From: an uncultured Candidatus Saccharibacteria bacterium
GTDB lineage: Bacteria > Patescibacteriota > Minisyncoccia > JAHISW01 > Tagabacteraceae
Reading direction: 5' to 3'
Length of the DNA: 32,000 bases
NCBI GenBank assembly: GCA_964636095.1
Contig: CAZWRF010000002.1
Coordinates: 1-32,000 of the forward strand
Of the stretch, positions 4,914 to 27,274 are shown piece by piece. The stretch's first letter is position 1. Each line of letters starts with the position of its first letter. The notes under the pieces are model-generated. The model was not told the origin of the DNA. It saw only the letters and a program-made list of their open reading frames with translations, and did no database searches. Made by a program: the position numbers and the translations under genes.

Positions 4914-4984
4914 AATTTTAATTTTACTCTTTTATAGTTATAATAGTATACAGAATCGTTTGATTTTTAACAGGAGGAAGAAAA

Positions 4985-5458: not shown

Positions 5459-5464
5459 TTCAAG

Positions 5465-5494: not shown

Positions 5495-5521
5495 GAAATT
5501 TTGCCGGAAATAAAATATAAA
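5493..5521 (+). promoter_or_regulatory. Candidate sigma70-type promoter of the activase/hydrogenase operon
   Basis: TTGAAA (5493-5498), 17-nt spacer, TATAAA (5516-5521). Only 11 nt separate it from the ATG at 5533, and there is no SD. Confidence 0.45.
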
Positions 5522-5532
5522 GATAATACAAC

Positions 5533-7393: not shown

Positions 7394-7405
7394 TATCTGA
7401 TAATG

Positions 7406-7414
7406 TGGTACAAT
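7406..7414 (+). promoter_or_regulatory. Candidate internal extended -10 promoter (TGGTACAAT) 7 nt upstream of the DUF192 ATG
   Basis: TGGTACAAT at 7406-7414, ATG at 7422, no SD in between. Confidence 0.35.
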
Positions 7415-7421
7415 ATGGATA

Positions 7422-7892
7422 ATGAAAAGATTATTTTTAAGTTCGGCTGTTTTTTCGGTGATTCTTTTGGTTTTTTTGGCTATGTGGTTTTTATTGCGGA
7501 AAAACCAGCCGGAAAATCCGCTCTTGCCTCAGGTTTGCTTCAATACACGCTGTTTTTCCGTAGAGATTGCCTCTACTTCATTTGAACGCGAATTAGGCCT
7601 AATGTTCAGAAACGAACTGCCCATTGACAGAGGCATGCTTTTTACCTTCAAGGGCGAAGGCATTCATTCTTTCTGGATGAAAAATACCTATATTTCTCTT
7701 GATATGATATGGCTAAATAAAGACAAGGAGGTTGTTTATATTGAAAAAAACGCTCTCCCTTGCGAGGATGAATGCTCCGACATTATTCCGGACAAAGCCG
7801 CCCTTTATGTATTGGAGATAAACGGGGGAATGGCCGACCAAATAGGCCTTAAAGTGGGCGACAAAATGGATTTTTACGTAAATCAGGACTAG
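7422..7892 (+). CDS. DUF192 family protein with N-terminal signal/anchor helix
   Basis: N-terminal hydrophobic segment LFLSSAVFSVILLVFLAMWFLL. DUF192-like core ELGLMFR...DRGMLFTF......FWMKNTYISLDMIW. Confidence 0.75.
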   Translation: MKRLFLSSAVFSVILLVFLAMWFLLRKNQPENPLLPQVCFNTRCFSVEIASTSFERELGLMFRNELPIDRGMLFTFKGEGIHSFWMKNTYISLDMIWLNKDKEVVYIEKNALPCEDECSDIIPDKAALYVLEINGGMADQIGLKVGDKMDFYVNQD

Positions 7893-7895
7893 GGT

Positions 7896-8114
7896 ATGAA
7901 GTTTTTCGTGCGGGTAAAGGCCGGAGCAAAATCGGAAAAAATAGAGCAAATAGACGAATACCATTTTTTAATTTGGACAAAAGAGCCGGCTAAAGAGGAC
8001 AAGGCCAACAAAAGCGCGGCAAAAATGTTAGCCGATTTTCTGGGTATTCCTCCGTCTTCTCTTGCCTTGAGGCAGGGCCGGCATTTCCAAGAAAAAGTTT
8101 TTGAGTTAAAATAA
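7896..8114 (+). CDS. DUF167 (YggU/UPF0235) family protein
   Basis: VRVKAGAKSEKI ... EPAKEDKANKSAAKMLADFLGIP...L.L.QG....K pattern. 3-nt gap from the upstream gene. Confidence 0.65.
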   Translation: MKFFVRVKAGAKSEKIEQIDEYHFLIWTKEPAKEDKANKSAAKMLADFLGIPPSSLALRQGRHFQEKVFELK

Positions 8115-8121
8115 AAATATT

Positions 8122-9123
8122 GTGAAAGTTATTGAGAAAAAAAATCTGGAAAATTTGACCAAGGAATTGGCCAAAAAATTTTCCGTTGTAGCCCCCGTTA
8201 GAAGAGAAGACGGGGAATATGTTTTTTCAAAACTTGGCGAAGACTCTTCGCCCGATTTCAACTACCGCCCTACTGTTCTCTCGATAAAGCAGTTTTTCTT
8301 TCCTGCCAAGGAAGAGACCTTTGCTTTCGATACAAAAAAGAAAAAAGTTTTGCCTCAGGCAAGGCCTGAAAAAATTGTTTTATTTGGCCTCAATCTTCGC
8401 GATACGGAGGCCCTCGTTCAGCTTGACGAGATAATGAAAAAACCGAAGCCGGATTATTTTTATTTTCAGAAAAGAAATCTGGCCACGGTTGTTTCCATAA
8501 TAAACGTCACCGATTCCCTGCCCCATGTAGGCGTTGATCTTATTCTTGAAAAAGTAAACGACAAGGAATATAAGGCTACGCCGCTGACAAAAGAAGGGAG
8601 AAAAATTTTGGAAAGCAGGTATTTTAAAAATACAAAAAAAATAAAAATAAAAGTAAATCCGAAATCCAAAAAAATGGCCAAGCTTAGAGAGCTTCTTCTC
8701 GACCCGGAGCTTCTTAAAGACGCCGTTGAATGGTCATGGGAAGGTATACCTGAAATTTGGGACGATCTGGCGAAACAATGCCTCGGTTGCGGTATATGCA
8801 CTTATGTCTGTCCGTTATGTCATTGTTTTTCCGTTGAAGACAGGTGCGCGCTTAGCGGAGAAAAATGCACAAAAACAAGAGAGTGGGATGCGTGCACTCT
8901 TCCCGGTTTTGCTCAAATTACCGGCGGACACAATTTTCACCGCACCATTAAAGAAAGATACTACAACTGGTTTTTCCACAAGTTTGTCCGGGCCTACAAA
9001 GAATTCGGTAAATCGCAGTGTGTGGCTTGCGGAAGGTGCGCTATGTATTGCCCTGCCAGAATAGATATCGAAAAGGTTTTGGTTGACATTGTAAAAAAGT
9101 ACCAGTCAAAAGTAAAATTTTAA
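8122..9123 (+). CDS. hydB: Group 3b [NiFe]-hydrogenase (sulfhydrogenase-type) beta subunit, AsrA-like Fe-S protein
   Basis: Two ferredoxin-type Cys clusters, CLGCGICTYVCPLCHC and CVACGRCAMYCP. First gene in the beta-gamma-delta-alpha order typical of Pyrococcus-type sulfhydrogenase. GTG start. Confidence 0.8.
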   Translation: MKVIEKKNLENLTKELAKKFSVVAPVRREDGEYVFSKLGEDSSPDFNYRPTVLSIKQFFFPAKEETFAFDTKKKKVLPQARPEKIVLFGLNLRDTEALVQLDEIMKKPKPDYFYFQKRNLATVVSIINVTDSLPHVGVDLILEKVNDKEYKATPLTKEGRKILESRYFKNTKKIKIKVNPKSKKMAKLRELLLDPELLKDAVEWSWEGIPEIWDDLAKQCLGCGICTYVCPLCHCFSVEDRCALSGEKCTKTREWDACTLPGFAQITGGHNFHRTIKERYYNWFFHKFVRAYKEFGKSQCVACGRCAMYCPARIDIEKVLVDIVKKYQSKVKF

Positions 9124-9126
9124 AAA

Positions 9127-9957
9127 ATGAACAATATATATCTTCCCGAACAAGTAAAAGTGGCCGATATAAAACAGCTTTCGCGTGATGTGAAGCTTTT
9201 TCGCCTTAAGAAAAAGATAGGAAAGTTCAAAGCCGGCAGAAATAAGCTTGTTTTTACACCGGCCCAGTTTTTGCTTGTAGGTGTGTGGGGATACGGAGAA
9301 TCTCCGTTTGGCTGCGCTTCTTCGCCTTATGAAAAATCTTTTATTGACGTAGTAGTAAGAAATACCGGAGGCAAGGTCACTTCCGCTCTGCACAACAATG
9401 TTAAGAAAGGCGATGAAATTTCAATAAGAGGCCCTTTCGGCAATGGTTTTCCTCTTGAATTTTTTGAAGGCAAGGACATTGTTATGGCTACCGGGGGGTG
9501 CGGCATACCGCCCATAGCTGCTTTTATAGAATATGTAATAAAAAACAGGGAGAAGTTCGGCGAAGTCTACCTGCTTTACGGCGCGCGTACGCCCGCGGAT
9601 ATTTTAATGAAAGAAGACCTTAAAAGATGGGAAAAAAACATAAAAATAATTCTTACCATCGACAAGCCTCATCCGGAATGGAATGGGTGCGTAGGTTTTG
9701 TCACCGACATGGTGGATCAGATAAAAATAGACTCAAGAAGGGCCGTGGCTACCATGTGCGGACCCGGGCCGATGACGAACGCCCTGGAAAAAGTTTTGCG
9801 TCCGCTGGGTATTTCGGACAGAAGGATATTTGTTTCGGCAGAAAGAAAAATGCAGTGCGGAGTGGGAAGGTGCCAGCACTGTACCACGGGCGACAAATAC
9901 GTTTGCATGGACGGCCCTGTGTTTAATTTTGACGAAATAGATAAAAATTGGGATTAA
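9127..9957 (+). CDS. hydG: Group 3b hydrogenase gamma subunit (FAD/NAD(P)-binding oxidoreductase with C-terminal [2Fe-2S] motif)
   Basis: FNR-like fold motifs (GPFGNGF, ATGGCGIPP) and C-terminal CGVGRCQHCTTGDKYVCMDGPVF. Confidence 0.85.
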   Translation: MNNIYLPEQVKVADIKQLSRDVKLFRLKKKIGKFKAGRNKLVFTPAQFLLVGVWGYGESPFGCASSPYEKSFIDVVVRNTGGKVTSALHNNVKKGDEISIRGPFGNGFPLEFFEGKDIVMATGGCGIPPIAAFIEYVIKNREKFGEVYLLYGARTPADILMKEDLKRWEKNIKIILTIDKPHPEWNGCVGFVTDMVDQIKIDSRRAVATMCGPGPMTNALEKVLRPLGISDRRIFVSAERKMQCGVGRCQHCTTGDKYVCMDGPVFNFDEIDKNWD

Positions 9958-9958
9958 C

Positions 9959-10729
9959 ATGACAAAAAAAGAACTGCCAAAAGTAGCAATTTATGATTTT
10001 ACAGACTGTGAGGGGTGCGAAGTGAAGCTTGTTTCCCTTCGTGACAAGCTTCTTCCTCTTTTGAATCTTGTTGATATTGCCGACTGGCGCCTTGGGCAAG
10101 AAAGAAAAGACAAGGGGCCTTTTCTTGTTTCAATTATTGAAGGGACGCCCATTACTCAGCACGAGATAGACACGCTGAAACATCTTAGGGAAAATTCTAC
10201 TTACATTGTAGCTTTAGGCGCTTGCGCCTCTTTGGCCGGTATTCCCGGAATTATGAATAAAAAAGACAGAGAAAAGTGGCGAAAGAAAATTTATGGAAAA
10301 AACTACAAGGGAAAGGATATTGACGCTCTTCCCCTTCAGGCCTATGTAAAAGTGGATTTTTTCATTCACGGCTGTCCGGTGGATGAAGGCCAGCTTGAAA
10401 GAGTTTTGGAAGAGCTTCTTTCCGGAAAAACTCCTTCCTACAGGGGATATTCCGTTTGCTTTGAATGCAAGTTGGCGGGAAACAAATGCCGAATTGTAAA
10501 CGGTAAGCCGTGCCTGGGGCCCATAACTCAGGGCGGGTGCGGAGCTATCTGTGTTTCCGGCGGTTCACCCTGTTACGGCTGTTTTGGCCTGAGGGAAGAT
10601 GCCAATGTTGAAGGGCTTGTTAAAAGGCTGAAGAAAATCACCAATAAAAAGGAAATTGAAAGATACTTCACCATGTTCCACAATCAAATGCCCGAGTGGA
10701 AAGATAGGGTTAAAAAACTTCTCAAATAG
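9959..10729 (+). CDS. hydD: Group 3b [NiFe]-hydrogenase small (delta) subunit
   Basis: N-terminal DCEGCEV proximal-cluster motif, GACA, HGCP and a C-terminal Cys-rich region (CFECK...C...CLGPITQGGCGAICVSGGSPCYGCFG). 1-nt gap from hydG. Confidence 0.85.
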   Translation: MTKKELPKVAIYDFTDCEGCEVKLVSLRDKLLPLLNLVDIADWRLGQERKDKGPFLVSIIEGTPITQHEIDTLKHLRENSTYIVALGACASLAGIPGIMNKKDREKWRKKIYGKNYKGKDIDALPLQAYVKVDFFIHGCPVDEGQLERVLEELLSGKTPSYRGYSVCFECKLAGNKCRIVNGKPCLGPITQGGCGAICVSGGSPCYGCFGLREDANVEGLVKRLKKITNKKEIERYFTMFHNQMPEWKDRVKKLLK

Positions 10730-10746
10730 TTCAACAAACTTACTGT

Positions 10747-10786
10747 AAATAAAAAATGCCGGCCTGGTCCACGACCAAACCGGCAT
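10747..10786 (-). terminator. Strong intrinsic terminator, functional orientation on the minus strand
   Basis: Minus-strand hairpin ATGCCGG-TT-TGGTC-GTG-GACCA-GG-CCGGCAT followed by TTTTTTATTT. On the plus strand no T-run follows. Confidence 0.75.
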
Positions 10787-11030
10787 GTTGAAGGGCTCTG
10801 CTTCCCCTCTCTTCTTGGCTCCAGTGTGTGGCTTTTTATTTTTGTGGGTGCCTTCCCTTTGTGAGGTACACAAGACCGGACAAGTTGATTTAACAATCAA
10901 CGGATACACCTTCCCACGCTTTCGGGCTCGCCAGCTTTTGATTCGAATGTGTTTTAAAGTAGCGTCATAGCATGGCTTTTCTCTGGCTCCTTTGGTTTTT
11001 TGTTTTTGTCAAAAGGCCGTTTTTGACCTT
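10748..11030 (-). ncRNA. Candidate unclassified non-coding RNA (about 280 nt) in the hydD-hydA spacer
   Basis: Bounded by a near-consensus promoter (11038-11066) and the terminator at 10747-10786. No credible ORF. Local perfect hairpins at 11008-11027 and 10884-10901. GC-richer than the flanks by eye. Confidence 0.5.
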
Positions 11031-11037
11031 AGTTTGC

Positions 11038-11066
11038 ATTCTATATCAAAAAATGTTTCTTGTCAA
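11038..11066 (-). promoter_or_regulatory. Near-consensus sigma70-type promoter driving the candidate ncRNA
   Basis: Minus strand reads TTGACA (11066-11061), exactly 17 nt, TAGAAT (11043-11038). Confidence 0.6.
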
Positions 11067-11097
11067 TAGATAGTAATTTTTAAATTTTTTGGAATTT

Positions 11098-11106
11098 TGG
11101 TAGAAT
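11098..11106 (+). promoter_or_regulatory. Candidate extended -10 promoter for hydA (TGGTAGAAT)
   Basis: TGGTAGAAT lies 15 nt upstream of the hydA ATG, back-to-back with the minus-strand promoter. Confidence 0.4.
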
Positions 11107-11121
11107 AGAGATACATAAAAA

Positions 11122-12327
11122 ATGGCAAATATTACCGACAAATACATTACAAAGATTGAAGGGCATGGGAGCCTGGATGTTGATTGGGGAAAAAATAAAG
11201 TAAAGCTCAATATTCACGAAGGAGAACGCCTTTTTGAAGGGCTTCTCGTGGGCAGAAGCATAGGAGAAGCCTACTGGATTACTCCGAGGATTTGCGGGGT
11301 GTGCCCTATTGCCCACAACCTGGCTTCCGTCCGGGCTTGCGAGGACGGTTACGAGGTAAAAGTAAGTCCGAAAACTGAGCTTTTGCGCCAGCTTATGGAT
11401 TGCGGGCAAATGATACAAAGCCACGTTTTGCACATGGCATTTCTTGCGCTTCCCGACTATTTGGGAATTGACCGAGCTACCGAACTGGCAAAAAAGAATC
11501 CGAAAGTTTTTAAAGTAGTTTTGGATCTCAAAGAAGTTTCCGATGATATTGCTTATGTTGTGGCCGGGAGGAACGTTCACCCTACTACTATCACAATCGG
11601 AGGTTTTCACAAAATTCCCGAAAGAAAAGAGCTTGAAAACTTGCTTAAAAAAATAAAGAATACAAAAAAGGCGGCGAAGATCTTTATGAAGCTTTGCATT
11701 GGTGTAAAATACCCCGCCCTTAAGGCCGATTTTGAGCTTGTAGCTCAGAACGGGAAAAATATTTTATCGAGCAAAGACAAAAAAGTTTCCATAAAAGATT
11801 ACAAAAAAACCATTACGGAAGAAATTAAGACCTACTCAACGGCCAAGTTCGGCACCTACAAGCACCGCGAGATGATGGTGGGCGCTCTTGCCAGAATGTA
11901 TTTTGAGCTCAAAGACAAAAAAATGCGCTCTCTTCTGGATTTTGAAAATCCCTTCTACAACAACATGGCCCAGGGAATAGAAATATATCTTTACCACAAG
12001 AAGGCGGAGGAAATTCTTGAAAAGTTTTTGGGCGGCAATTTGAGCTTTCCCGTTGCCGAACCGAAGAAAAAGAAAGGGCCATACGAAGGAATAGGGGCAC
12101 ACGAAGCTCCCAGGGGAGGGCTTTACCACGAGTATCATTTCAACAGCAAGGGAGATATTACCTACGCTAATATTATTACCCCTACCGTTCAAAACCTCAC
12201 CTCAATAGAAAACTGCGCCAACAGGCTGATGAAGCAGTACGGGGACAAATCCCAAAAAGAAAAAGAGCACCTCATGGAGATGCTCGTCCGGGCCTACGAT
12301 CCGTGCATTACTTGTTCGGTTCACTAA
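11122..12327 (+). CDS. hydA: Group 3b [NiFe]-hydrogenase large (alpha) subunit, ending exactly at the C-terminal His
   Basis: N-terminal Ni-Fe ligand motif RICGVCPIAH and C-terminal DPCITCSVH followed directly by TAA. Confidence 0.9.
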   Translation: MANITDKYITKIEGHGSLDVDWGKNKVKLNIHEGERLFEGLLVGRSIGEAYWITPRICGVCPIAHNLASVRACEDGYEVKVSPKTELLRQLMDCGQMIQSHVLHMAFLALPDYLGIDRATELAKKNPKVFKVVLDLKEVSDDIAYVVAGRNVHPTTITIGGFHKIPERKELENLLKKIKNTKKAAKIFMKLCIGVKYPALKADFELVAQNGKNILSSKDKKVSIKDYKKTITEEIKTYSTAKFGTYKHREMMVGALARMYFELKDKKMRSLLDFENPFYNNMAQGIEIYLYHKKAEEILEKFLGGNLSFPVAEPKKKKGPYEGIGAHEAPRGGLYHEYHFNSKGDITYANIITPTVQNLTSIENCANRLMKQYGDKSQKEKEHLMEMLVRAYDPCITCSVH

Positions 12328-17794: not shown

Positions 17795-19546
17795 TTATAG
17801 TGGCGACAAAACAATGTTCATTTTTGTTTGTCCGCTGACGTTCACGTTGGACAAACTGAAATCTTGGTATCCAGCCTTTGTTGCTTCAATCGTGTAGTTT
17901 GCAGATGCGGAAAGTGGGGAGAAAAAAGTTTGGCCGCAGCTGTATGATGTTTCCAGCGTTTTGTCGTAACCAGTTTTTTGAAGTCTTACCAATACGCCCG
18001 GTACAAAATTTCCGCTGTTGTCTTCCACCGAAACCAAAAAGGTGTTGTTGGTGTGAGGAACCAAGACTATATCGGTTGTGGCATCGGTTCCTGGAGGTAA
18101 GCTAGCCGGTTGAAACGGGCATATCTCGGAAATGTCATAGCCTGTGGCGGCCCCATTCACCGTTATAAGATAATTATCCCACTCAAGCTCGGCAACATCA
18201 ATAACTCCTTCGCTGTCGGTTGTAAGATCTTCGGAATATTTGTAAATGGGGTTTGAGGATTCATCGGTTCCGGTTATTTTATCCCCTCTCATACTGAAAG
18301 ATAACGATGGCAGTGGAACTCGTCCCGATTCCCAGCTGACCTGCCAGTCGGAAAGAGCAGGCGTCTCGCTGGCGTCAATTGTTGAAAAATCCGCCTTTAG
18401 CCTTATTTCCGGATAGGTCGTTGAAGCCAAACTGGTTAGGTTCACGGGGGAAGTCTCAAATTCCGAGGAATTTCCCGGAAGGTCCGAGTCGGGAACAGCC
18501 TGCCAGCTTGATGAGTAAAAGTAAAGGACCTGGTATTTTATTGTAGTGCTGGCATCTTTTGAGTCGCTCCAGGAAAATTCCGTCCATTGATTCAGTTCCG
18601 AAGGAGTAATGGTTTTTGAAATAATATAGCCGGAAGAAGGATATCCTTCTTCCGGCGTTGATTTCAGAACTGCTTCTCCGCCGGTAATTTCGGTACTGGA
18701 GGTGGCTGAGATTTTACTTTCGTTTGAAAAAGAATCCGTCCATGTGTATGAATCGGCCGGAACGTAAGTTTTTATGGTATCGGATGATAAAAGATCTATT
18801 GAAAAACTTGCTTCGGCAGTTTCCCCCTCAATAATAGTGAGGTTTCCAGGTTGAGGATTGGGATTTTCCGGTGTGGCATCATATGTTTGCGTTGTGCTGT
18901 ATCCTGTTTTACTTACGGTAATTTTGTAGTTTGAGCCGGCTGGAGCACCCGGGAGAATAACTTTTCCGTTGAAGTTGGTTAAAATGAAGATGGAAACGGC
19001 GGGGTCAACGGAATCATTTTCAATCTCAACGATTGCTCCGGCTACGGGCAAGATAGAAGCGTCGAAAACATTTATTTTTAGAGTACCTCCTCCTGCTGTT
19101 GTTTCCATGCTTTTGGGTACAATATCGGAAACAAAAACAACTGATTCGGCGGTATTTTTGTTCTCCCAGCCTATTTCCACCCTTACTCTTTTGTAGTCTG
19201 CCGTAATACCGTTTTCGTCGTCATCACCCTCGCCGTCTGCGGGGTCGTCTATATATTGAATTAATGTGTCGCACGTATAGTCCACGCCGTTTAGATGCAT
19301 GATTTCCGATTGAGGAATGTTGCCGGTCGGAATACCGCCCAACGTACCCACGTCATCGTAGGGAAGGTTTTTTATGGATTCCATTTTATCGTTTGCCAAA
19401 GCGACTGCTCCGGCGCGAAGCCTGGATATCCCCGCCACATTAACGGCGACGCTGAAAGCGGCCGATATTCCTACAAAGACAATAAGCATTAGAGCTACGC
19501 CCACCAAAACGTCTATAAGGGAAAAACCGCTGTTTTTTTTAAACAT
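17795..19546 (-). CDS. Giant type IV pilin-like protein with two CarboxypepD_reg-like beta-sandwich domains
   Basis: Prepilin N-terminus MFKKNSG/FSLIDVLVGVALMLIVF. Ig-like segments (KINVFDASILPVAGAIVEI...YKITVSKTGY; FLVSVEDNSGNFVPGVLVRLQKTGY...YTIEATKAGY). I prefer ATG 19546, 1 nt after the pilC stop, over GTG 19558. Confidence 0.8.
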   Translation of the reverse strand: MFKKNSGFSLIDVLVGVALMLIVFVGISAAFSVAVNVAGISRLRAGAVALANDKMESIKNLPYDDVGTLGGIPTGNIPQSEIMHLNGVDYTCDTLIQYIDDPADGEGDDDENGITADYKRVRVEIGWENKNTAESVVFVSDIVPKSMETTAGGGTLKINVFDASILPVAGAIVEIENDSVDPAVSIFILTNFNGKVILPGAPAGSNYKITVSKTGYSTTQTYDATPENPNPQPGNLTIIEGETAEASFSIDLLSSDTIKTYVPADSYTWTDSFSNESKISATSSTEITGGEAVLKSTPEEGYPSSGYIISKTITPSELNQWTEFSWSDSKDASTTIKYQVLYFYSSSWQAVPDSDLPGNSSEFETSPVNLTSLASTTYPEIRLKADFSTIDASETPALSDWQVSWESGRVPLPSLSFSMRGDKITGTDESSNPIYKYSEDLTTDSEGVIDVAELEWDNYLITVNGAATGYDISEICPFQPASLPPGTDATTDIVLVPHTNNTFLVSVEDNSGNFVPGVLVRLQKTGYDKTLETSYSCGQTFFSPLSASANYTIEATKAGYQDFSLSNVNVSGQTKMNIVLSPL

Positions 19547-19547
19547 T

Positions 19548-20765
19548 TTAGATTCCACTCATTACGCTATACATCGGTGTTATCATTGATACCGCGAAAA
19601 AGCCCACAACTGTTCCTATCACTATCATGAGAATAGGTTCAATGATAACAGTAAGATTTTTTGTTGTCTCCGAAACTTCTCCTTCGTAGAAAAGAGCAAG
19701 CTTCAAAAGCATATCTGAAAGTTTCCCCGTTTCTTCTCCTACCGCTATCATTTCCCCCACCAGAGGCGGGTATATTTTTTCGTATTTTTTGAATACTGAT
19801 GATATTTTTTCTCCTTTTTTAATTTCTTCTTTTGCCTTTTGAAGGACTCTTTTGTAATGAAAATTCTGAACTACGTCGGTTGTTACGTCCATCGCTTCCA
19901 GTATTTCCACGCCGGAATTGGAAAGCGAAGATAGGGTTCTTGCTGTTCGGGCGGAGTTTATTTTCTGAACCAGAGCCGCTGTTATTGGTAGATGCATGAG
20001 TGCGGTGCCTAGTATTCTTTTGAATCTCTCCGTTCGCCAAACCGATATTAGGGAAAATATCAAAACAATAAAAATCACGATTACCAAAACAAAATTGTGC
20101 AGTATAAAATCGCTGGCTCCTATTATTATTTTTGTACCCAGCGGAAGATCAACCCCCAGCTCCGTAAAAGTGGCGGTAAGTGTGGGTACCACGTAAATCA
20201 GCATCAAAATTCCTATTCCTATCATTGCCATGAAGACGATGCAGGGATATATCATTGCTCCTCTGACTTTTTTTATGAGCTGATACTCTTTGTCCATTTG
20301 GTCGGCTACAAGATTTAGGGATTCGTCCATTTTTCCGCTTTTTTCGCCCGCTTCTACCATGGCTATGGCGAATTTTGGGAAAACTTTTTTATGAACGGCC
20401 ATGCTTGAGCTTATGCTATTTCCCTTAATTATGTTTGAGTGCACTTCCTCAATGACTTTTTGCAAGTTTTTATTTTTTGTTTGCCGTATAAGGACTTCCA
20501 TGGCTCTTGAAGTGGTTAGCCCGGCGTTTATCATTATAGACAGGTTTCTGAAAAAGAGCATTTTTTCGGAGAGTTTTATTCGGCCGATAAAACTATCAAG
20601 AAAGCCAAGCTTGGTTTTCAGCCCCTCTTTCTTCGCGTGGACAATAATGTAACCCTCTCTTTTAAGATCGGCGGCCAGGGCCAGTTCGTTTTCCGCTTCT
20701 CGTGTTTCTTCTATTTCTCCCCCGCTTCCGTCAATTTTTTGCGCTTTAAATTTATAAATAGGCAT
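19548..20765 (-). CDS. pilC: Type IV pilus platform protein PilC (GspF family)
   Basis: Two T2SSF repeats, three TM segments and typical motifs (GLTTSRAMEVL; GEETGKLSDML). Confidence 0.9.
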   Translation of the reverse strand: MPIYKFKAQKIDGSGGEIEETREAENELALAADLKREGYIIVHAKKEGLKTKLGFLDSFIGRIKLSEKMLFFRNLSIMINAGLTTSRAMEVLIRQTKNKNLQKVIEEVHSNIIKGNSISSSMAVHKKVFPKFAIAMVEAGEKSGKMDESLNLVADQMDKEYQLIKKVRGAMIYPCIVFMAMIGIGILMLIYVVPTLTATFTELGVDLPLGTKIIIGASDFILHNFVLVIVIFIVLIFSLISVWRTERFKRILGTALMHLPITAALVQKINSARTARTLSSLSNSGVEILEAMDVTTDVVQNFHYKRVLQKAKEEIKKGEKISSVFKKYEKIYPPLVGEMIAVGEETGKLSDMLLKLALFYEGEVSETTKNLTVIIEPILMIVIGTVVGFFAVSMITPMYSVMSGI

Positions 20766-20766
20766 A

Positions 20767-22521
20767 TTATTCCCTTGTTACCCTAAACACTTCTTCCAGC
20801 GAGGTGAGTCCCTGGGCGGCCTTGAGAATGCCATCTTCAAACATGGTTATCATTCCATCTTTTTTTGCCTGTTCCTCTATCCGGTCGGAAGTAGCGTTTC
20901 CTATTATGAGGTTTTTTATTGTTTCCGTCACCAAAAGAATTTCGTGTATCCCCACGCGCTCTTTGTATCCGTCCGGGCTTTCCGGAGACGGCTCCGGCTT
21001 GTAAAAATTGATATCTTTCCATTCCGTATCCGGTTTTATGATTTTTTCTTTTCTTAAAATCTGAAGCATTCTTTTAAGGTCTACTTCCTCTCCCAGCTCG
21101 GCCAGGTCGTCTTTTGAAAGCTTGTATGCTTTTTTGCTTGAGCACAACACACGGACAAGTCTTTGGGCTACGGCCACGTTTATGGTGGAAGCCAGAAGAA
21201 ACGGCTCTACCTTCATGTCCAAAAGACGCGGTATAGAGCCGGCGGCGGAATTTGTGTGAAGAGTGGACAAAACAAGATGGCCGGTTAGAGCCGCGTTAAC
21301 GGCCAAAGATGCCGTTTCGCTGTCTCTTATCTCGCCTACCATAATAACGTCCGGATCCTGCCTAACTAAAGACCTCAATCCTTTTGCAAAAGTAAAGCCT
21401 ATGTCCGTTTTTACTTGGGTTTGGTTTATTCTTGGCATTTGGTATTCTATAGGGTCTTCTATCGTGGAAATATTAACCTCAGGGGTGTTTATAATATCCA
21501 AAATGGTGTAGAGGGTTGTTGTTTTTCCGCAGCCCGTGGGACCTGTGGCAAGTATCATGCCGTGCGGTCTTCTTATAGCTTTTTGCATTGTCTCCACCTG
21601 CTCGCCGGTGAATCCTAAAGTTTCCAGGTTGAAACCTTTTGAGTCTTCTCGCAAAAGACGCAGTACGGCTTTTTCTCCGTTGTAAACAGGAAGAATGGAT
21701 ACTCGGAAAGAAACTTTTTCTTCAGGTGTCTCTATTTTAAATCTTCCATCTTGCGGAAGTCTTTTTTCGTCAAGCCTCAAATTGGAAAGTATTTTTATTC
21801 GCGCTATTACGGCATCGGAAATATTTTTGGGTAGATCCATTGCGTCGTGAAGAATACCGTCCACCCGGTAACGCACCAAAAGTTCTTTTTCCATGGGTTC
21901 TATGTGTATATCACTTGCTCTTTGAAGGATGGCATGCTGTACAAGAGTGTCCACTATGCGGACTACCGGAAGCTCCTCAGCCATTTTTTTCAACTCCTCT
22001 GCTTTTTTTTCTGTTTTTCCTCCTTCGGCGGCAAGTGTTTTTATGGAAACGGAATCCTTTTTTATGATGTCGCCAAATTCCGCTTCAAGGCTTTTATGGT
22101 ATTGTCGAAGCGCGTTTTTTATGGATTCTTCTGTTGTAAGTCTGGGCAAAATTCTTAGATTGGACCTCTTTTTTATAAAGTCAATGGTTTCAATATCGTT
22201 CGGGTCCAGCATGGCTACTTCCAAATTGTCGCCGTTTTTTCTGTAGGCGATTATGTTGTGAGACCTTGCCGTTGGTTCCGGGATAAAAGAAAGAATTTCA
22301 AAATCAATCTTCTCTTTTTCCAAATTTACGAAAGGAATACCCAAAATATAGGCTTCAAGCCTTCTAAGGTCTTCTACGGAAATTTTTCCTTCTTTTATCA
22401 AAAGATCTCCCAGATCTTGTTTTTTTTCAGCCGCTTCTTTACTTGCTTTTTCTATGTCTTCTGCCGGAACAAGGCCCGAATCCAAAAGAAAAGCTTTAAG
22501 TTGTTCTCGTTCTACGCTCAT
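20767..22521 (-). CDS. pilB: Type IV pilus assembly ATPase PilB (GspE family) with N-terminal GSPII_E_N/MshEN-like domain
   Basis: Walker A GPTGCGKTT, Asp box, Walker B DPDVIMVGEIRD, His box LSTLHTN. The N-terminal DLGDLLIKEGKISVEDL repeat is typical of the N1 domain. Confidence 0.9.
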   Translation of the reverse strand: MSVEREQLKAFLLDSGLVPAEDIEKASKEAAEKKQDLGDLLIKEGKISVEDLRRLEAYILGIPFVNLEKEKIDFEILSFIPEPTARSHNIIAYRKNGDNLEVAMLDPNDIETIDFIKKRSNLRILPRLTTEESIKNALRQYHKSLEAEFGDIIKKDSVSIKTLAAEGGKTEKKAEELKKMAEELPVVRIVDTLVQHAILQRASDIHIEPMEKELLVRYRVDGILHDAMDLPKNISDAVIARIKILSNLRLDEKRLPQDGRFKIETPEEKVSFRVSILPVYNGEKAVLRLLREDSKGFNLETLGFTGEQVETMQKAIRRPHGMILATGPTGCGKTTTLYTILDIINTPEVNISTIEDPIEYQMPRINQTQVKTDIGFTFAKGLRSLVRQDPDVIMVGEIRDSETASLAVNAALTGHLVLSTLHTNSAAGSIPRLLDMKVEPFLLASTINVAVAQRLVRVLCSSKKAYKLSKDDLAELGEEVDLKRMLQILRKEKIIKPDTEWKDINFYKPEPSPESPDGYKERVGIHEILLVTETIKNLIIGNATSDRIEEQAKKDGMITMFEDGILKAAQGLTSLEEVFRVTRE

Positions 22522-22536
22522 GTCAAAAAATTAAAA

Positions 22537-22908
22537 TTACTTGAGTATTTCGCCTATTTTCTCAACTATCTCCGTGGGCCTATAGTTTGTTTTTACAAGG
22601 TAGGCTCTTACTCCGTAAGACAGAGCTTTTTCAATGTCGTATTTTTCTTCAAGGTTGCTCAGTATAATAACGGGGACATCCCTCTTCTCTTCCATGGTTT
22701 TCATTTTTTCCAAAAAATCGTACCCGTCTTTTTTGGGTAAAATCAAATCCAGTAAAATCAAGTCGGGTTTTTTTTCTTCAAGAATTTTTAGTCCTATTTC
22801 TCCGTCGTAAGCATTAAAAATTTCATAGCCTGCTTTCTCAAGAAGAGGAGACAATATGTTGTGTAGGCGTTTTTCGTCTTCAACGAAAAGTATTTGTTTT
22901 TTTTTCAT
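22537..22908 (-). CDS. Single-domain (CheY-like) response regulator
   Basis: Receiver motifs FVEDE, DLILLDLILP (phospho-Asp), ILSN and LVK. No output domain. Confidence 0.85.
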   Translation of the reverse strand: MKKKQILFVEDEKRLHNILSPLLEKAGYEIFNAYDGEIGLKILEEKKPDLILLDLILPKKDGYDFLEKMKTMEEKRDVPVIILSNLEEKYDIEKALSYGVRAYLVKTNYRPTEIVEKIGEILK

Positions 22909-22919
22909 GTTATTGTCGG

Positions 22920-23882
22920 TTATTGTTTAATGGGCAAGGTAAACCAAAAAGTTGAGCCCTTGCCTTCTATGCTTGTAAAACCAACCTGTCCTCCGAGGGT
23001 TGTGATTACGGATTTTATGAGGTAAAGACCTATGCCCAGGCCGTCGCTTTTATATTTTTTTGATTCAGCACCGCGGAAAAATTTGTGAAAAATCATTTTT
23101 TTATCTTCTTCGGAAATTCCAACCCCTTCGTCAGTTATTGAAAATTTTATTTTCTTGTCTTTGTTGTCGAGGGACATATCTATTTTTCCTCCATTCGGGC
23201 TGTATCGAATTGAATTGTCTATGAGGTGGCTAATTACTGCAGTTACCTTATTTTTATCGGAGTAAATTGTTATCTCGTCGTCTGATGGAGAAAAAGTAAA
23301 CTCCAAGTTTAGGGAGGCCGCCTTATCTGCATACTTTGCCATGACATCTTTTACCAGAGAAACAAGAGGAAATTCCGTCTTCATTATTACCATCGAATCA
23401 TTTTCCATTCGACTTATCTCGAGCAAGTCGTTTACAATCATAATCATACGCTCGTTTTGATCGTTGATGGCAGAAAGAGATTGTTTCCCGGCTTCGCCCA
23501 TAGGACTTAAGTCTTTGTTCAAAAGAGAATCCATTTGCCATTTTATTGCTGAAAGAGGGTTTCTCAATTGGTGCGACATAATGCCGATGAATTCGGACTT
23601 GTCTTTTGATGTTTGAGCCACCTTTTCAAACGAACTTAAAATAATGTAAGACAAAATAAAAAGCACCGCTGTTACCACGCATACTATAAGAGCAACGACA
23701 AGTGGGTCAACATATGTGCGGCTTACAAAATAAGTAATTATTATTGATGCTATAATAATCCCCCCCATTATCGTAAAAATAACGGGCGGGCACTCCCACA
23801 TCCCCACCTTGTATTCACGACAGTATCTCCTGAAGCTAAAAAGCTCTAGAAATTGCTTGAGACTATTTTTTTTCTTCGGCAT
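22920..23882 (-). CDS. Membrane histidine kinase (2 TM, minimal extracytoplasmic loop)
   Basis: H-box IGIMSHQLRNPL, N-box DNSIRYS, G1 DEGVGI, G2 GLGIGL. The start is set at MPKKK (ATG 23882) rather than the track start at 24011. Confidence 0.85.
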   Translation of the reverse strand: MPKKKNSLKQFLELFSFRRYCREYKVGMWECPPVIFTIMGGIIIASIIITYFVSRTYVDPLVVALIVCVVTAVLFILSYIILSSFEKVAQTSKDKSEFIGIMSHQLRNPLSAIKWQMDSLLNKDLSPMGEAGKQSLSAINDQNERMIMIVNDLLEISRMENDSMVIMKTEFPLVSLVKDVMAKYADKAASLNLEFTFSPSDDEITIYSDKNKVTAVISHLIDNSIRYSPNGGKIDMSLDNKDKKIKFSITDEGVGISEEDKKMIFHKFFRGAESKKYKSDGLGIGLYLIKSVITTLGGQVGFTSIEGKGSTFWFTLPIKQ

Positions 23883-23888
23883 GTTTTT

Positions 23889-23897
23889 ATTATACCA
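23889..23897 (-). promoter_or_regulatory. Extended -10 promoter TGGTATAAT 6 nt upstream of the kinase ATG (leaderless-type)
   Basis: Minus strand reads TTTGGTATAATAAAAACATG. No SD. Confidence 0.5.
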
Positions 23898-23954
23898 AAT
23901 TTTGACAAAATATAATAAGTTTGTGAAAAAAATATGTGTAAAACTTTTTATGAT

Positions 23955-23983
23955 TTGACAAATTCTAAAAATAGATATATCCT
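23955..23983 (+). promoter_or_regulatory. Candidate nusA promoter
   Basis: TTGACA (23955-23960), 17 nt, TATCCT (23978-23983). Confidence 0.4.
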
Positions 23984-23992
23984 TAAACGTAG

Positions 23993-24021
23993 AGCCTTGT
24001 GGAGTCCCCACGGGCTTTTTT
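23993..24021 (+). terminator. Terminator-like hairpin plus U6 tract in the nusA leader (possible attenuator)
   Basis: AGCC-TT-GTGG-AGTCC-CCAC-G-GGCT followed by TTTTTT, 43 nt before the nusA ATG. Confidence 0.5.
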
Positions 24022-24063: not shown

Positions 24064-25281
24064 ATGATCGATTTAAAAGCATTAAACTCAACTTTGGAAC
24101 AGTTGGAAACAGAACGAGGTATTTCTCGTGAAACTATCCTTGAAACCATCGAAGACGCAATGGCGGCTGCCTATAAGCGCGATTATGGCAAAAAAGGACA
24201 AATAATAAGGGCAAAATTTGACCCAAAAACGGGAAAAGCCGAATTTAGCCAGGTAAAAATTGTAGTTGATGATTCTATGCTTAAACCGGAAAGCGACGAC
24301 GAAGAGGCTGCCGCTGAAGGCGGTGAGTTTCGCGCAGAAAATTCTGGGCGGGAAGAGCCGGAAGAAGGGGGAGAAGAACGTAAGATAAGATTCAACCCCG
24401 AGCGCCACATAATGATTAACGAAGCCAAAAAGATAAAGAAAGAAGTTGAAGTGAGTGAAGAGATGGTCTTTCCCTTGGACTCCAAGGAAGATTACGGACG
24501 CATTGCCGCCCAAACAGGGAAACAGGTTATTATCCAGCGTATCAGAGAAGCAGAAAGAAATTCAATTTATGAAGAATTTAAAAACAAGGAAGGTGAGGTA
24601 GTAAGCGGTATTATTCAAAGAATAGAAGGAGGAAATATTTTTCTTGACCTGGGAAGGACAACTGCCATTATGCCGCGGGATGAACAGGTTTGGGGCGAAC
24701 GTTACAGAATAGGAGAGCGGATAAAAGCACTTATTTTCCTTATTGAACAAACACCGCGGGGAATAAACATATATTTATCAAGGTCTCATCCCAGATTTTT
24801 AACTAAGCTTTTTGAGATGGAGGTGCCCGAAATAAACGCCGGAACGGTTGAAATTAAGAGTGTGGCCAGAGAAGCGGGTTCTCGATCAAAAATTGCCGTT
24901 TTGTCCAATAAGGAGGAAATTGACCCTGTCGGTTCTTGCGTAGGGCAAAAAGGAGTACGAGTAGGTACCGTTATATCCGAATTGGGGGGAGAAAAAATCG
25001 ATATTATAGAATGGTCCGATGAGTCGGAAAGATTCATAATCAATGCCCTTTCCCCTGCCAAGGTTATAGAGGTTGACATAAAACCGAAAGGCAAAGAAGC
25101 TGTGGTAACGGTGGACGAGGATCAGGTGTCTCTGGCTATAGGAAAAAGAGGTCAAAATGTACGGCTGGCGGCTAAATTAACAGGCTGGAAGTTGGATATA
25201 CGTTCAAGAAGCGGTGAATCAATTGCCCAAGTGACGGAGGAAGGAAAAGTAACGGGGAAAGGTATAGAACCGACCAATTAG
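24064..25281 (+). CDS. nusA: Transcription termination/antitermination factor NusA (with an acidic insertion in the N-terminal region)
   Basis: NusA N-terminal domain, S1 domain (GEVVSGIIQRIEGGNIFLDLG) and two KH domains (GSCVGQKGVRV; AIGKRGQNVRLAAKLTGWKLDI). Acidic insert ESDDEEAAAEGGEFRAENSGREEPEEGGEE. Confidence 0.9.
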   Translation: MIDLKALNSTLEQLETERGISRETILETIEDAMAAAYKRDYGKKGQIIRAKFDPKTGKAEFSQVKIVVDDSMLKPESDDEEAAAEGGEFRAENSGREEPEEGGEERKIRFNPERHIMINEAKKIKKEVEVSEEMVFPLDSKEDYGRIAAQTGKQVIIQRIREAERNSIYEEFKNKEGEVVSGIIQRIEGGNIFLDLGRTTAIMPRDEQVWGERYRIGERIKALIFLIEQTPRGINIYLSRSHPRFLTKLFEMEVPEINAGTVEIKSVAREAGSRSKIAVLSNKEEIDPVGSCVGQKGVRVGTVISELGGEKIDIIEWSDESERFIINALSPAKVIEVDIKPKGKEAVVTVDEDQVSLAIGKRGQNVRLAAKLTGWKLDIRSRSGESIAQVTEEGKVTGKGIEPTN

Positions 25282-25294
25282 TTTCATATGAAAC
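25281..25294. promoter_or_regulatory. parS-like perfect palindrome GTTTCATATGAAAC (site 1)
   Basis: Starts on the last base of the nusA stop codon. With flanks it matches TGTTNCACGTGAAACA at 13/16. Confidence 0.5.
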
Positions 25295-25425
25295 AAAGAT
25301 TTCAGGTTTTTTGACAAATTAAATTTTTTACAGACCCTTTATTCCCCGTAATATTCCATTCGGGCTTACTAAGATGTTATAAAGTAAAAAATTTGATTTG
25401 CAAAAAACGAAAAAGATATAGAAAG

Positions 25426-25800
25426 ATGGCCAGACATAACAAAATCGGTTCTGTTGGAGAAGACATTGCTGTGAAACATTTAGTGAAACAGGGGTATAAG
25501 ATTTTAGATAAAAATTACAGAAAGAAATGGGGCGAGATTGATATAGTTGCAGAGAAGAAGAAAATTCTTCATTTTGTTGAGGTAAAAACTGTTTCATGTG
25601 TAACAAAATTTGATGAGTATTATCCGGAAGAGAACGTTCACTACTTTAAAAAACAAAGATTGGCTAGGGCTATAAATACATATTTGGCCGAGAAAAGAGT
25701 TTCATATGAAACAGAGTTCGTAGTAGATGTTGTGGCGGTATTTTATAATCCCGATACGGGAGATAATAAAATAAGGATAACAGGGAATATCATTCTTTGA
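25426..25800 (+). CDS. yraN: YraN family (UPF0102) endonuclease-like protein
   Basis: G..GE..A..YL...GY.IL..N.R...GEIDIVA......L.FVEVKT pattern. The start is set at ATG 25426 (MARHNKIG) instead of TTG 25393. Confidence 0.8.
   Translation: MARHNKIGSVGEDIAVKHLVKQGYKILDKNYRKKWGEIDIVAEKKKILHFVEVKTVSCVTKFDEYYPEENVHYFKKQRLARAINTYLAEKRVSYETEFVVDVVAVFYNPDTGDNKIRITGNIIL
25591..25604. promoter_or_regulatory. parS-like site GTTTCATGTGTAAC (site 2, hybrid half-sites)
   Basis: Inside yraN. With flanks, TGTTTCATGTGTAACA matches the parS consensus at 14/16. Confidence 0.45.
25699..25712. promoter_or_regulatory. parS-like perfect palindrome GTTTCATATGAAAC (site 3, identical to site 1)
   Basis: Inside yraN, 418 bp from the identical site 1. 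Confidence 0.5.
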
Positions 25801-25930
25801 AAACTAAATTTTTTGCAAAATCCTTTCTTTTGTCTTTTTGTCTTAGTTTAAGGTTGCTTTTTGTTTCATTCGCTATTTAAGTATTTTGACAAAACCGGGG
25901 TCCTTCGGACAAAAGCAAAAAATTTAGTTT
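25801..25930. repeat. Perfect 16-bp inverted repeat enclosing 98 bp, directly after the yraN stop
   Basis: AAACTAAATTTTTTGC (25801-25816) is the exact reverse complement of GCAAAAAATTTAGTTT (25915-25930). Nested TTTGACAAA/TTTGTCAAA repeat and a GTCC-TTC-GGAC hairpin lie inside or nearby. Confidence 0.7.
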
Positions 25931-25984
25931 GTCAAAGAATGTTTAGAGATTAGGTTAATTAGGTGAATTAGAAATTCTTTTTTG

Positions 25985-25998
25985 GTTACACGTGTAAC
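25985..25998. promoter_or_regulatory. parS-like perfect palindrome GTTACACGTGTAAC (site 4)
   Basis: 12 nt upstream of the tRNA-Pro 5' end. Canonical CACGTG centre but symmetric T->A change in both half-sites. Confidence 0.45.
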
Positions 25999-26009
25999 TA
26001 AAAAAGCGG

Positions 26010-26083
26010 CGGGGATTGGCCCAATTGGCTAGGGCACTCGCTTTGGGAGCGAGAGGTTGCCGGTTCAAGTCCGGCATCCCCGA
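26010..26083 (+). tRNA. tRNA-Pro (anticodon UGG)
   Basis: Acceptor CGGGGAT/ATCCCCG (C1-G72, as in bacterial tRNA-Pro), D arm GCCC-AATTGGCTA-GGGC, anticodon arm CTCGC-TTTGGGA-GCGAG, T arm GCCGG-TTCAAGT-CCGGC. No encoded CCA. Confidence 0.9.
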
Positions 26084-26107
26084 TAACTAAGTGGGGACAA
26101 ATAAGCC

Positions 26108-26130
26108 ATCAGACATTTCTATCAGACATT
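26108..26130. repeat. Direct repeat ATCAGACATT x2 (13-bp period) downstream of tRNA-Pro
   Basis: 26108-26117 and 26121-26130 are identical, separated by TCT. Confidence 0.7.
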
Positions 26131-26167
26131 ATTGTAAAATAAGGCTTTTTGTCCGATAGAGTAAAAA

Positions 26168-26209
26168 TTATTCACAATTAATCTGCCGGTTGTGCACATC
26201 TTGTGCACA
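26168..26209 (+). repeat. Three co-oriented DnaA-box-like 9-mers phased at 22 and 11 bp
   Basis: TTATTCACA (26168-26176), TTGTGCACA (26190-26198) and TTGTGCACA (26201-26209). The latter two contain the palindrome TGTGCACA. Confidence 0.6.
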
Positions 26210-26246: not shown

Positions 26247-26639
26247 TTATTTTTTTTGGCGGGGAATTGCCAATGCCCCCGATAAAAGGAAAAGACAATC
26301 TTCCAACAAGATTATTGCAATACTTATAACAAAAGCGGAGATAGGGGCGGGGTAAATAAAAAACAAAACGGACGCGAGCATATTCAGCAGAATAAAAATA
26401 CCGATAATAGCCAAGGAAACTGCCCACATAAAAAAACTTGCTCCATCATCGTGATGTTTCGGATTGCCGCAAAGGAAAAAACTTACCACGGATACGGATA
26501 TGCCGAACAAAACAAGGAAAATGGTGGCATCGTGTATTGTCTTTATTTCTCCATACCAGTGACCGATGGCGAAATACAAGAGAACAACAAGAAAAGCACC
26601 AATGATACCTCTAAAAGGACTTTTAAGTATATTTTTCAT
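26247..26639 (-). CDS. Hypothetical small membrane protein (130 aa, about 4 TM)
   Basis: SD AAGGAG (26650-26645) 5 nt upstream of the ATG. Serial hydrophobic helices. No family recognised. Confidence 0.65.
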   Translation of the reverse strand: MKNILKSPFRGIIGAFLVVLLYFAIGHWYGEIKTIHDATIFLVLFGISVSVVSFFLCGNPKHHDDGASFFMWAVSLAIIGIFILLNMLASVLFFIYPAPISAFVISIAIILLEDCLFLLSGALAIPRQKK

Positions 26640-26652: not shown

Positions 26653-26856
26653 CTACAAGCTCGGGAAAAGAATAAATAAAAGATAGCACCAAAGGGATAA
26701 GCATGCGGCATCGAAAAGCGATCTTAGAAATGACTTTAATCCCCAGGAAACTTTCTCTCTTTTTGCGAATTGGTAGCCTGCCGCGATTATATTAATCATA
26801 GCAGTGACAAAACAAACCCATGCGGCAAAAAATACGAATATTTTTAGAATAATCAT
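26653..26856 (-). CDS. Hypothetical small membrane protein (67 aa, 2 TM)
   Basis: Strong SD GGAGGAGGAG (26872-26863) 6 nt upstream of the ATG. Two hydrophobic helices. Confidence 0.55.
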   Translation of the reverse strand: MIILKIFVFFAAWVCFVTAMINIIAAGYQFAKREKVSWGLKSFLRSLFDAACLSLWCYLLFILFPSL

Positions 26857-26981: not shown

Positions 26982-27012
26982 TTTTTGTCTTGTGCGGGAT
27001 AAGGGAGTCGAA
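26982..27012 (-). repeat. Perfect 31-nt duplicate of the tRNA-Gly 3' end (T-loop to discriminator plus 11 nt of 3' flank)
   Basis: 26982-27012 is identical to 27123-27153. Identity starts exactly at the first T-loop nucleotide. The upstream sequence cannot form D or anticodon arms. Confidence 0.85.
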
Positions 27013-27120: not shown

Positions 27121-27133
27121 CATTTTTGTCTTG

Positions 27134-27204
27134 TGCGGGATAAGGGAGTCGAACCCTTCACCTCAGTTTGGAAAACTGATATTATACCGATTAACTAATC
27201 CCGC
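27134..27204 (-). tRNA. tRNA-Gly (anticodon UCC)
   Basis: 71-nt cloverleaf on the minus strand. Acceptor GCGGGAT/ATCCCGC, D arm GTTA-ATCGGTA-TAAT, anticodon arm TCAGT-TTTCCAA-ACTGA, T arm AAGGG-TTCGACT-CCCTT. No encoded CCA. Confidence 0.9.
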
Positions 27205-27209: not shown

Positions 27210-27270
27210 AAACCCCCGCCTACATCTTTAACAAAGTTGTGGCGGGGGTTTCATCTTTCGCGAAAGATGA
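27210..27270 (-). terminator. Structured region/terminator between hup and tRNA-Gly
   Basis: 20-nt perfect palindrome TCATCTTTCGCGAAAGATGA (27251-27270), then an 11-bp GC-rich stem AAACCCCCGCC/GGCGGGGGTTT (27210-27220 / 27241-27251) with a TTTT tail on the minus strand. Confidence 0.5.
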
Positions 27271-27274
27271 ATAC

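Follow-up and report, generated by a model that had tools for sequence, protein, structure and literature searches.

A cluster of parS-like palindromes at yraN, a probable origin-proximal centromere in uncultured Patescibacteria

The DNA analysed here, hereafter called the window, is a stretch of 32,000 nucleotides from an uncultured Candidatus Saccharibacteria bacterium (contig CAZWRF010000002.1 of assembly GCA_964636095.1, positions 1 to 32,000). It contains four short palindromes, placed at the end of nusA, inside yraN and just before a tRNA-Pro gene. These palindromes are probably origin-proximal chromosomal centromere sites of the parS type, and would then form a candidate loading cluster for the ParB protein. 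From the comparison with related genomes, they appear to be the window's copy of a cluster kept at yraN by a large clade of Patescibacteria (Paceibacteria/Parcubacteria type). The consensus of the motif in this clade reads as the canonical parS 16-mer, and selection on it acts at the DNA level.

Results

Four palindromes in the window

Exactly four matches to the pattern GTTWCANNTGWAAC were found in the window, all of them inside 718 bp; the remaining 31.3 kb had no match. The number expected by chance is 0.01, and none of 100 dinucleotide-preserving shuffles reached four matches. A search allowing two mismatches returned only scattered weak extra matches. An earlier interpretation made from the letters of the window alone, hereafter the sequence-only reading, had reported these four 14-mers, three of them perfect palindromes, as occurring far more often than chance allows, and this was borne out at the following coordinates:

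25281..25294, unstranded: parS-like site 1, GTTTCATATGAAAC; 16-mer AGTTTCATATGAAACA, 13/16 to parS
25591..25604, unstranded: parS-like site 2, GTTTCATGTGTAAC; 16-mer TGTTTCATGTGTAACA, 14/16 to parS
25699..25712, unstranded: parS-like site 3, GTTTCATATGAAAC, the same as site 1; 13/16 to parS
25985..25998, unstranded: parS-like site 4, GTTACACGTGTAAC; 13/16 to parS

The first base of site 1 is the G that ends the nusA TAG stop codon (25279-25281). Sites 2 and 3 lie within yraN, at +165 and +273, where they are read in frame as V-S-C-V-T and V-S-Y-E-T, respectively; most yraN loci have a site at +165. Site 4 is separated by 11 nt from the tRNA-Pro gene that follows it (26010-26083). The matches to the parS consensus, TGTTNCACGTGAAACA, had been counted correctly for sites 1 to 3, whereas site 4 matches at 13 positions of 16 and not at 12.

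The consensus of the motif is that of parS

The motif was analysed in two samples. The first consisted of 80 Patescibacteria loci anchored on nusA (1.30 Mb with the window), and the second, independent of it, of 80 metagenome loci anchored on YraN and retrieved by a scan whose peptide patterns exclude the motif. The pooled yraN set comprises 91 loci. In total, the sampled DNA was about 2 Mb of partial genomes. Individual loci are designated below by L numbers. As a search pattern, parS-like sites can be written GTTNCAYRTGNAAC.

A frequency matrix built on 351 unique sites gave t-GTTtCA-YR-TGaAAC-a, in which the T and A that flank the parS core each occur in 54% of sites. Only one core position is degenerate (T 75%, A 16%, C 5%, G 3%), and it coincides with the "N" in the published consensus, for which the canonical form and its variants have been described (PMC7022226). 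Perfect canonical 16-mers were present in the relatives L043 and L023, with TGTTTCACGTGAAACA in the former. The centre of the 351 sites was CG in 35%, TG/CA in 44% and TA in 14%. The sequence-only reading had seen in the symmetric deviations of the window sites a reader with shifted specificity. This proposal is unnecessary, as CG, TG/CA and TA centres are interchangeable in the clade; the TA- and TG-centred sites of the window are ordinary family members. The resemblance to parS that it had recognised is strengthened: the clade consensus matches parS, the sites are found at one locus, and this locus is origin-proximal where measurable.

The two half-sites vary independently (219 symmetric sites observed, for 208.8 expected), as would be expected of a dimeric protein that contacts two half-sites, and not of a hairpin.

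The cluster is anchored on yraN

In the nusA-anchored loci the motif was rare but clustered, with four sites inside 260 bp in L023 and two sites 27 bp apart in L043. Both clusters adjoin yraN, not nusA. Within 700 bp of yraN, a zone which represents 1.6% of the 1.30 Mb, we found 8 of the 13 exact sites and 10 of the 74 sites with one mismatch.

Among the 91 yraN loci, site density was about 0.02/kb at more than 5 kb from yraN, and rose to 1.4/kb at -2000..-600, 5.4/kb at -150..0 and 3.6/kb within the gene. The enrichment at yraN relative to flanks more than 5 kb away was 200- to 800-fold. Sites were borne by 74 of the 91 loci, typically three to eight of them over 1–3 kb, and were confined to one locus per genome region sampled. 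An origin as restriction sites or uptake sequences was rejected, since such a confinement to a single locus is not a dispersed distribution.

The upstream hot spot falls inside whichever gene neighbours yraN. This is a divergent cca gene (CCA-adding enzyme) in 51 of 87 loci and a gene for an Mpl-like ligase in others; in the window's subgroup it is the 3' end of nusA. The sequence-only reading had tied the cluster to nusA and tRNA-Pro, and here it has to be corrected, the conserved anchor across relatives being yraN. An element linked to nusA or to the tRNA was likewise rejected: most of the clade has cca or mpl at that place, and only yraN is constant.

In L169, whose YraN is 85% identical to that of the window, all four sites are present at orthologous positions (nusA stop, +165, +273 and directly before tRNA-Pro), and the layout is the same in L168 and L084. 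Orthologues of site 1 lie at or overlap the nusA stop in L169 (-43) and L084 (-10). The position of site 4 reads GTTTCATATGAAAC in L169, L168 and L084, versus GTTACACGTGTAAC in the window; compared with L169, the window differs there by four substitutions, all symmetric and all inside the motif. On these alignments, the positions of the sites are conserved while the sequence turns over within the motif.

Site 4 is also the centre of a near-perfect palindrome of 30 bp (25977-26006, CTTTTTTG-GTTACACGTGTAAC-TAAAAAAG, with one G/T mismatch), and in L043 a perfect palindrome of 30 bp surrounds the canonical parS. These extensions are not kept between relatives.

The genes concerned are:

24064..25281, plus strand: nusA (Pfam NusA_N, KH_5); upstream neighbour of yraN only in the window's subgroup
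25426..25800, plus strand: yraN (UPF0102, PD-(D/E)xK nuclease; Pfam PF02021, E = 4e-21), ATG at 25426, stop at 25798-25800
26010..26083, plus strand: tRNA-Pro (UGG), between site 4 and the DnaA-box module described below

The tRNA-Pro gene is placed in the same order in L084, L168, L169, L163 and L149. The NusA of the window has 100% identity to a protein encoded on an NCBI contig of 37,262 bp, and relatives carry the annotation of Patescibacteria/Parcubacteria groups. YraN has been described as a nuclease acting on D-loops (displacement loops) in natural transformation (bioRxiv 10.1101/2024.02.06.579203).

Besides the full sites, half-sites were detected in the cluster:

25471..25489, minus strand: half-parS heptamer GTGAAAC, present twice in direct orientation with a spacing of 12 bp, close to +50 within yraN
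25863..25869, plus strand: a lone half-site GTTTCAT, in the spacer between yraN and tRNA-Pro

Near +50 of yraN, relatives carry a full site with one mismatch, GTTTCTYRTGAAAC. The window holds 17 half-parS heptamers of the form GTTWCAY, of which 11 are within 25281-25998. Six are found in the remaining 31.3 kb, versus about 13 expected, which hints at an avoidance of half-sites outside the cluster.

Two other groups of genes in the window may be mentioned. Directly upstream of nusA (19548-24011) are the type IV pilus genes PilB/PilC with an adjacent histidine kinase and response regulator, and this pilus and two-component block is kept beside nusA-yraN in L168, L169 and L171. Further away, at 8122-12327, are genes resembling those of a group-3-type NiFe hydrogenase (Fer4_22, FAD/NAD-binding subunit, Oxidored_q6, NiFeSe_Hases).

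Codon usage shows selection on DNA

Inside yraN, the sites are always in frame 0, where GTT-TCA-YRT-GAA-ACA is read V-S-x-E-T. This pentapeptide was found at one or two fixed positions in 99 of 120 YraN homologs, as VSYET (70), VSCET (37), VSHET (24), VSCVT (11), VTHET (8) or VSRET (5). The middle residue, Y, C, H or R, is exactly one of those encoded by YRT codons. For the four other residues, codons were compared between 49 VSxET pentapeptides and the rest of the same genes. Valine was encoded by GTT in 47 pentapeptides (37% elsewhere), serine by TCA in 36 (23% elsewhere), glutamate by GAA in 48 (68% elsewhere) and threonine by ACA in 36 (41% elsewhere). Codon usage is forced, and selection is therefore exerted on the DNA.

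In genes other than yraN, 94 sites were in frame 0, 34 in frame 2 (read x-F-H-V/M-K-x) and six in frame 1, a nearly unused frame in which a TGA stop codon would arise. In-frame sites occur inside yraN, cca, mpl-like and jag genes. With near-fixed synonymous codons and such a choice of frame, the peptide follows from the DNA word and is not its cause. A motif selected at the protein level, VSxET, was rejected by the codon test.

The palindromes could still be regarded as a by-product of the conserved VSxET peptide, or as RNA hairpins in yraN or cca transcripts. The recurrence of the pentapeptide at fixed positions in YraN homologs would suit the former, and the fact that palindromes can fold the latter, the context of site 4 reaching -12.7 kcal/mol. 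However, synonymous codons are fixed far past any amino-acid need, the variable residue tracks YRT codons and not amino-acid chemistry, and many sites are non-coding or in unrelated genes. As for RNA, motif positions 4 and 11 do not covary, sites 1 to 3 fold weakly (-1.1 to -3.8 kcal/mol), relatives do not keep the longer stem seen at site 4, and no matching family was found in Rfam; an RNA hairpin or terminator was rejected on these grounds. Both versions are largely refuted, and we give them a very small probability.

In L023, the cca open reading frame (ORF; 18596-20191) contains at 18857-18918 an in-frame insert, VTHVTEEIVSRETIDSVTHVT, made of three parS-like sites at an exact spacing of 24 bp. 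Pairs spaced by 24 bp recur in other loci, within yraN (+165 and +189) and upstream of it.

Position relative to the replication origin

The yraN locus was close to dnaA in two relatives. L149 and L170 both have dnaA followed by rnpA-yidC-jag-sigma-...-yraN-tRNA-Pro, and six to eight parS-like sites lie 3–4 kb from dnaA. In GCA_018819015.1, whose NusA is 80% identical to that of the window, a single contig carries yraN and dnaA at a distance of 38 kb, and the dnaA-dnaN spacer contains four DnaA boxes.

Strand composition was also examined, by a per-ORF skew regression which separates the effect of gene strand from that of replication side. At yraN, the replication-side effect was +0.032 (95% confidence interval 0.022-0.043), with the polarity of an origin. 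It peaked about 1 kb upstream of yraN, was gone by +-8 kb, and was absent in nusA-anchored controls. For the skew at third codon positions (GC3), the gene-strand term was about zero and the side term peaked at 0.055. The best GC3 change-point was located 0.5–1.5 kb upstream of yraN in 9 of 21 long loci, and the right-minus-left difference in GC3 skew in these nine ranged from +0.10 to +0.41.

DnaA boxes, defined as TTATCCACA with at most one mismatch, showed a 12-fold enrichment over the 300 bp that precede yraN in the 91 loci. There were 116 of them, 52 being perfect; 72 loci had at least one and 40 at least two. In the window's subgroup, the boxes are downstream of yraN, just past tRNA-Pro, and form a module overlooked in the sequence-only reading:

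26092..26209, unstranded: conserved non-coding DnaA-box-like module, from the alignment with L169, L168 and L084
26092, in the module: DnaA-box-like TGGGGACAA
26108 and 26121, in the module: DnaA-box-like ATCAGACAT, twice
26168, in the module: DnaA-box-like TTATTCACA
26190 and 26201, in the module: DnaA-box-like TTGTGCACA, twice, 11 bp apart

The boxes of the window are degenerate, with one or two mismatches, and relatives have a perfect TTATCCACA in the module's place. In the four-way alignment of the window with L169, L168 and L084, the box elements stand as invariant islands in diverging non-coding DNA. L084 has AGTGGATAA, then TTATCCACA-ta-TTATTCACA, then one more parS-like site.

These data raise the possibility that the palindromes are a component of the origin, or of a secondary DnaA-box cluster, bound by a factor other than ParB, such as an initiation regulator or an SMC loader. 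The enrichment of boxes beside yraN, the conservation of the box module in the window's subgroup, and the skew switch of origin polarity that maps to the yraN region all speak for it. On the other hand, no parS-like site was found at four diverse dnaA loci of the clade, although DnaA boxes surround dnaA there; the palindromes are therefore specific to the yraN locus and not a general feature of the origin. Moreover, a classical dnaA-dnaN box cluster exists 38 kb away in a relative, the skew of the window does not switch at yraN, and the motif is that of parS, whose known reader is ParB. We consider this explanation unlikely.

The sequence-only reading had named proximity to the GC-skew minimum or to dnaA as a check. 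In relatives, the locus lies near dnaA (3–4 kb and 38 kb) and has the nine change-points; the 32 kb of the window contain no dnaA and no origin-type switch at yraN, only the conserved module of DnaA-box-like elements.

In all four dnaA loci of this clade (L161, L165, L166 and L167, about 1-8200 in each), a conserved block resembling a type IV secretion system (TrbL, PrgI, TraC-like, VirB4/TraG-like ATPase, pilin) is placed directly beyond jag-yidC-rnpA. In Firmicutes, this place is occupied by gidA/gidB/parA/parB.

Beyond the DnaA-box module, an exact direct repeat of 24 bp (26989-27012 and 27130-27153) corresponds to the 3' end of a tRNA-Gly gene. That gene (27133-27204, minus strand) is inverted and shifted by about 1 kb relative to L084, L083 and L163, in which tRNA-Pro and tRNA-Gly point the same way, 65–140 bp from each other. 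The repeat and inversion look like the scar of a rearrangement or integration beside the module. Between the two tRNA genes are two small ORFs resembling membrane proteins, without Pfam match (26247-26639 and 26653-26856, both minus strand). Just past the 5' end of tRNA-Gly, a perfect palindrome of 22 bp, TTCATCTTTCGCGAAAGATGAA (27250-27271), is not parS-like.

Search for a reader protein

Pfam scans of the 30 ORFs of the window gave no match to ParA or ParB, as the sequence-only reading had stated. The search was extended by regular expressions and tblastn to 171 Patescibacteria loci from partial genomes (2.17 Mb), among them the neighbourhood (+-10 kb) of dnaA from six genomes and that of yraN from about 24. 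Approximate sequences of Spo0J, Soj and E. coli DnaA served as tblastn queries. This method returned DnaA nine times, and no ParB or Soj. The Pfam tables of seven loci list neither ParB nor ParA.

Eight of 87 loci have, between cca and yraN, an ORF of about 220 aa whose product has an N-terminal helix-turn-helix (HTH) and a LAGLIDADG-like segment, "GLYWAEGSK" (5562-6224 in L104, 2392-3054 in L113, 8855-9538 in L131, and in five other loci). This ORF is possibly a homing-endonuclease gene, mobile and inserted in the region of the sites and DnaA boxes. As a reader of the sites this ORF was rejected, being present in only these eight loci and of mobile, LAGLIDADG-type appearance.

The dense sites could alternatively form the operator array of a dimeric protein unrelated to ParB, whose role would be to repress yraN and its neighbours (cca, tRNA genes) or to time their expression. 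Site density is greatest over the 150 bp that precede the yraN start, where pairs spaced by 16–27 bp are frequent, and site 4 is only 11 nt from tRNA-Pro. A dedicated regulator is made plausible by the role of YraN in transformation (bioRxiv 10.1101/2024.02.06.579203), and no ParB was found in the 2.17 Mb of loci. But instead of being restricted to the promoters of a regulon, most sites lie in frame within genes (yraN, cca, mpl-like and jag), which is atypical of operators. The identity of the 16-bp consensus to parS, including the N position, would have to be a coincidence. The motif is found at no other promoters in about 2 Mb, which would imply a regulon of a single locus, and the HTH gene between cca and yraN, present in only 8 of 87 loci, is the one of mobile appearance described above. 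In view of the in-frame intragenic sites and the exact parS consensus, an operator array is disfavoured relative to parS, and we judge it improbable.

Several observations weigh against parS-type sites as well. None of the four window sites is the canonical CG-centred full 16-mer, the match to TGTTNCACGTGAAACA being only 13–14 of 16. The window taken alone has no origin-type skew switch at yraN, whether by raw skew, per-ORF regression or GC3. Its best skew breakpoint, at 26–27 kb, is of opposite sign and based on five ORFs, and is taken as uninformative; the tRNA-Gly rearrangement may blur the signal. No homolog of ParB or of ParA/Soj was detected in the 2.17 Mb of partial genomes, and the literature searched contained no published account of parS or ParABS in Patescibacteria. 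Finally, sites 16–27 bp apart and in promoters would suit a repressor too. According to a recent survey, which gives no specifics for Patescibacteria, 84% of bacterial orders have a chromosomal parB, and losses are sporadic (PMC12704722).

A more novel possibility is that the clade has no canonical ParAB, or has it far away, and that the perfectly conserved parS words are read by a different or highly divergent protein. They would then belong, together with the DnaA boxes, to a composite origin-centromere module that moved from dnaA and is carried by yraN. This scenario is tentative, and we hold it to be rather unlikely. Under it, selection on DNA words would have written V-S-x-E-T into most YraN proteins of the clade, and inserted extra in-frame copies in neighbouring essential genes such as cca.

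Discussion

We favour centromere sites of the parS type for the four palindromes. In the mechanism that we propose, dimers of an HTH/CTPase protein of the ParB family would recognise each 16-bp palindrome, close as sliding clamps with bound CTP, and spread along a few kb of DNA. Several close sites, four here and three to eight in relatives, would raise the rate of loading. The outcome would be one partition complex per origin region, beside the DnaA-box module, able to recruit SMC and, if ParA is present, to drive segregation. When gene order changes, yraN would carry the centromere along. With two sites in the reading frame of yraN, gene and centromere would travel together, which would explain this odd linkage. 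ParB binding and its consequences are inferred here from the sites.

If correct, this would provide the first concrete centromere and origin-region marker for a huge uncultured radiation whose cell cycle is essentially unknown. The searchable literature describes neither parS nor ParABS in this phylum, and the embedding of the sites in coding sequence is unusual. Due to its linkage to yraN, the cluster can be detected by a simple pattern search in fragmentary metagenome-assembled genomes. It also offers an unusually clean case of a DNA site constraining a protein, a 14-bp word fixing codons and, family-wide, V-S-x-E-T in YraN. Should ParB turn out to be missing, the conservation of the parS word would imply an unknown reader. 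The coupling of parS and DnaA boxes suggests a compact module joining replication initiation and segregation in minimal genomes.

The closest known system is chromosomal parS/ParB, as in Bacillus subtilis, Corynebacterium glutamicum and Mycobacterium, with the same 16-bp palindrome consensus, TGTTNCACGTGAAACA, and the same degenerate position. As with chromosomal parS, the sites are few, clustered, tolerated in coding sequence, and origin-proximal in the relatives where this is measurable. B. subtilis has a parS within spo0J that is translated in this frame too, giving V-P-R-E-T. In contrast to chromosomal parS, the yraN cluster has no parAB operon nearby, the centre of its sites is freely CG, TG/CA or TA, and it is very dense, with three to eight sites per 1–3 kb, some only 16–27 bp apart. 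Two of its sites are fixed at set yraN codons clade-wide, and it abuts a DnaA-box module.

Noc-binding sites (ATTTCCCGGGAAAT) are likewise palindromes for a ParB-family protein; unlike the sites at yraN, they differ at specificity positions and are scattered genome-wide. With DnaA-box clusters and oriC, the locus shares boxes of the TTATCCACA type in clusters of two to five beside the sites, and the skew switch seen at 9 of 21 long loci. However, the palindromes themselves are not DnaA boxes, and the box clusters that flank dnaA in the clade are devoid of them.

A last comparison is with Streptococcus pneumoniae, which has ParB and no ParA. Its parS, AGTTTCACGTGAAACT, has A...T or A...A flanks instead of T...A, as do window sites 1 and 3, and it has four origin-proximal parS sites, the number found in the window. 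The pneumococcal sites are kilobases apart and not at conserved codons, and their ParB is known, unlike in the window cluster. ParB spreading from one pneumococcal parS modulates a competence operon (PMC4488948; PMC7022226). The window cluster covers a natural-transformation gene, yraN. By analogy, regulation of the yraN region could be a secondary effect of the cluster even if its main role is that of a centromere.

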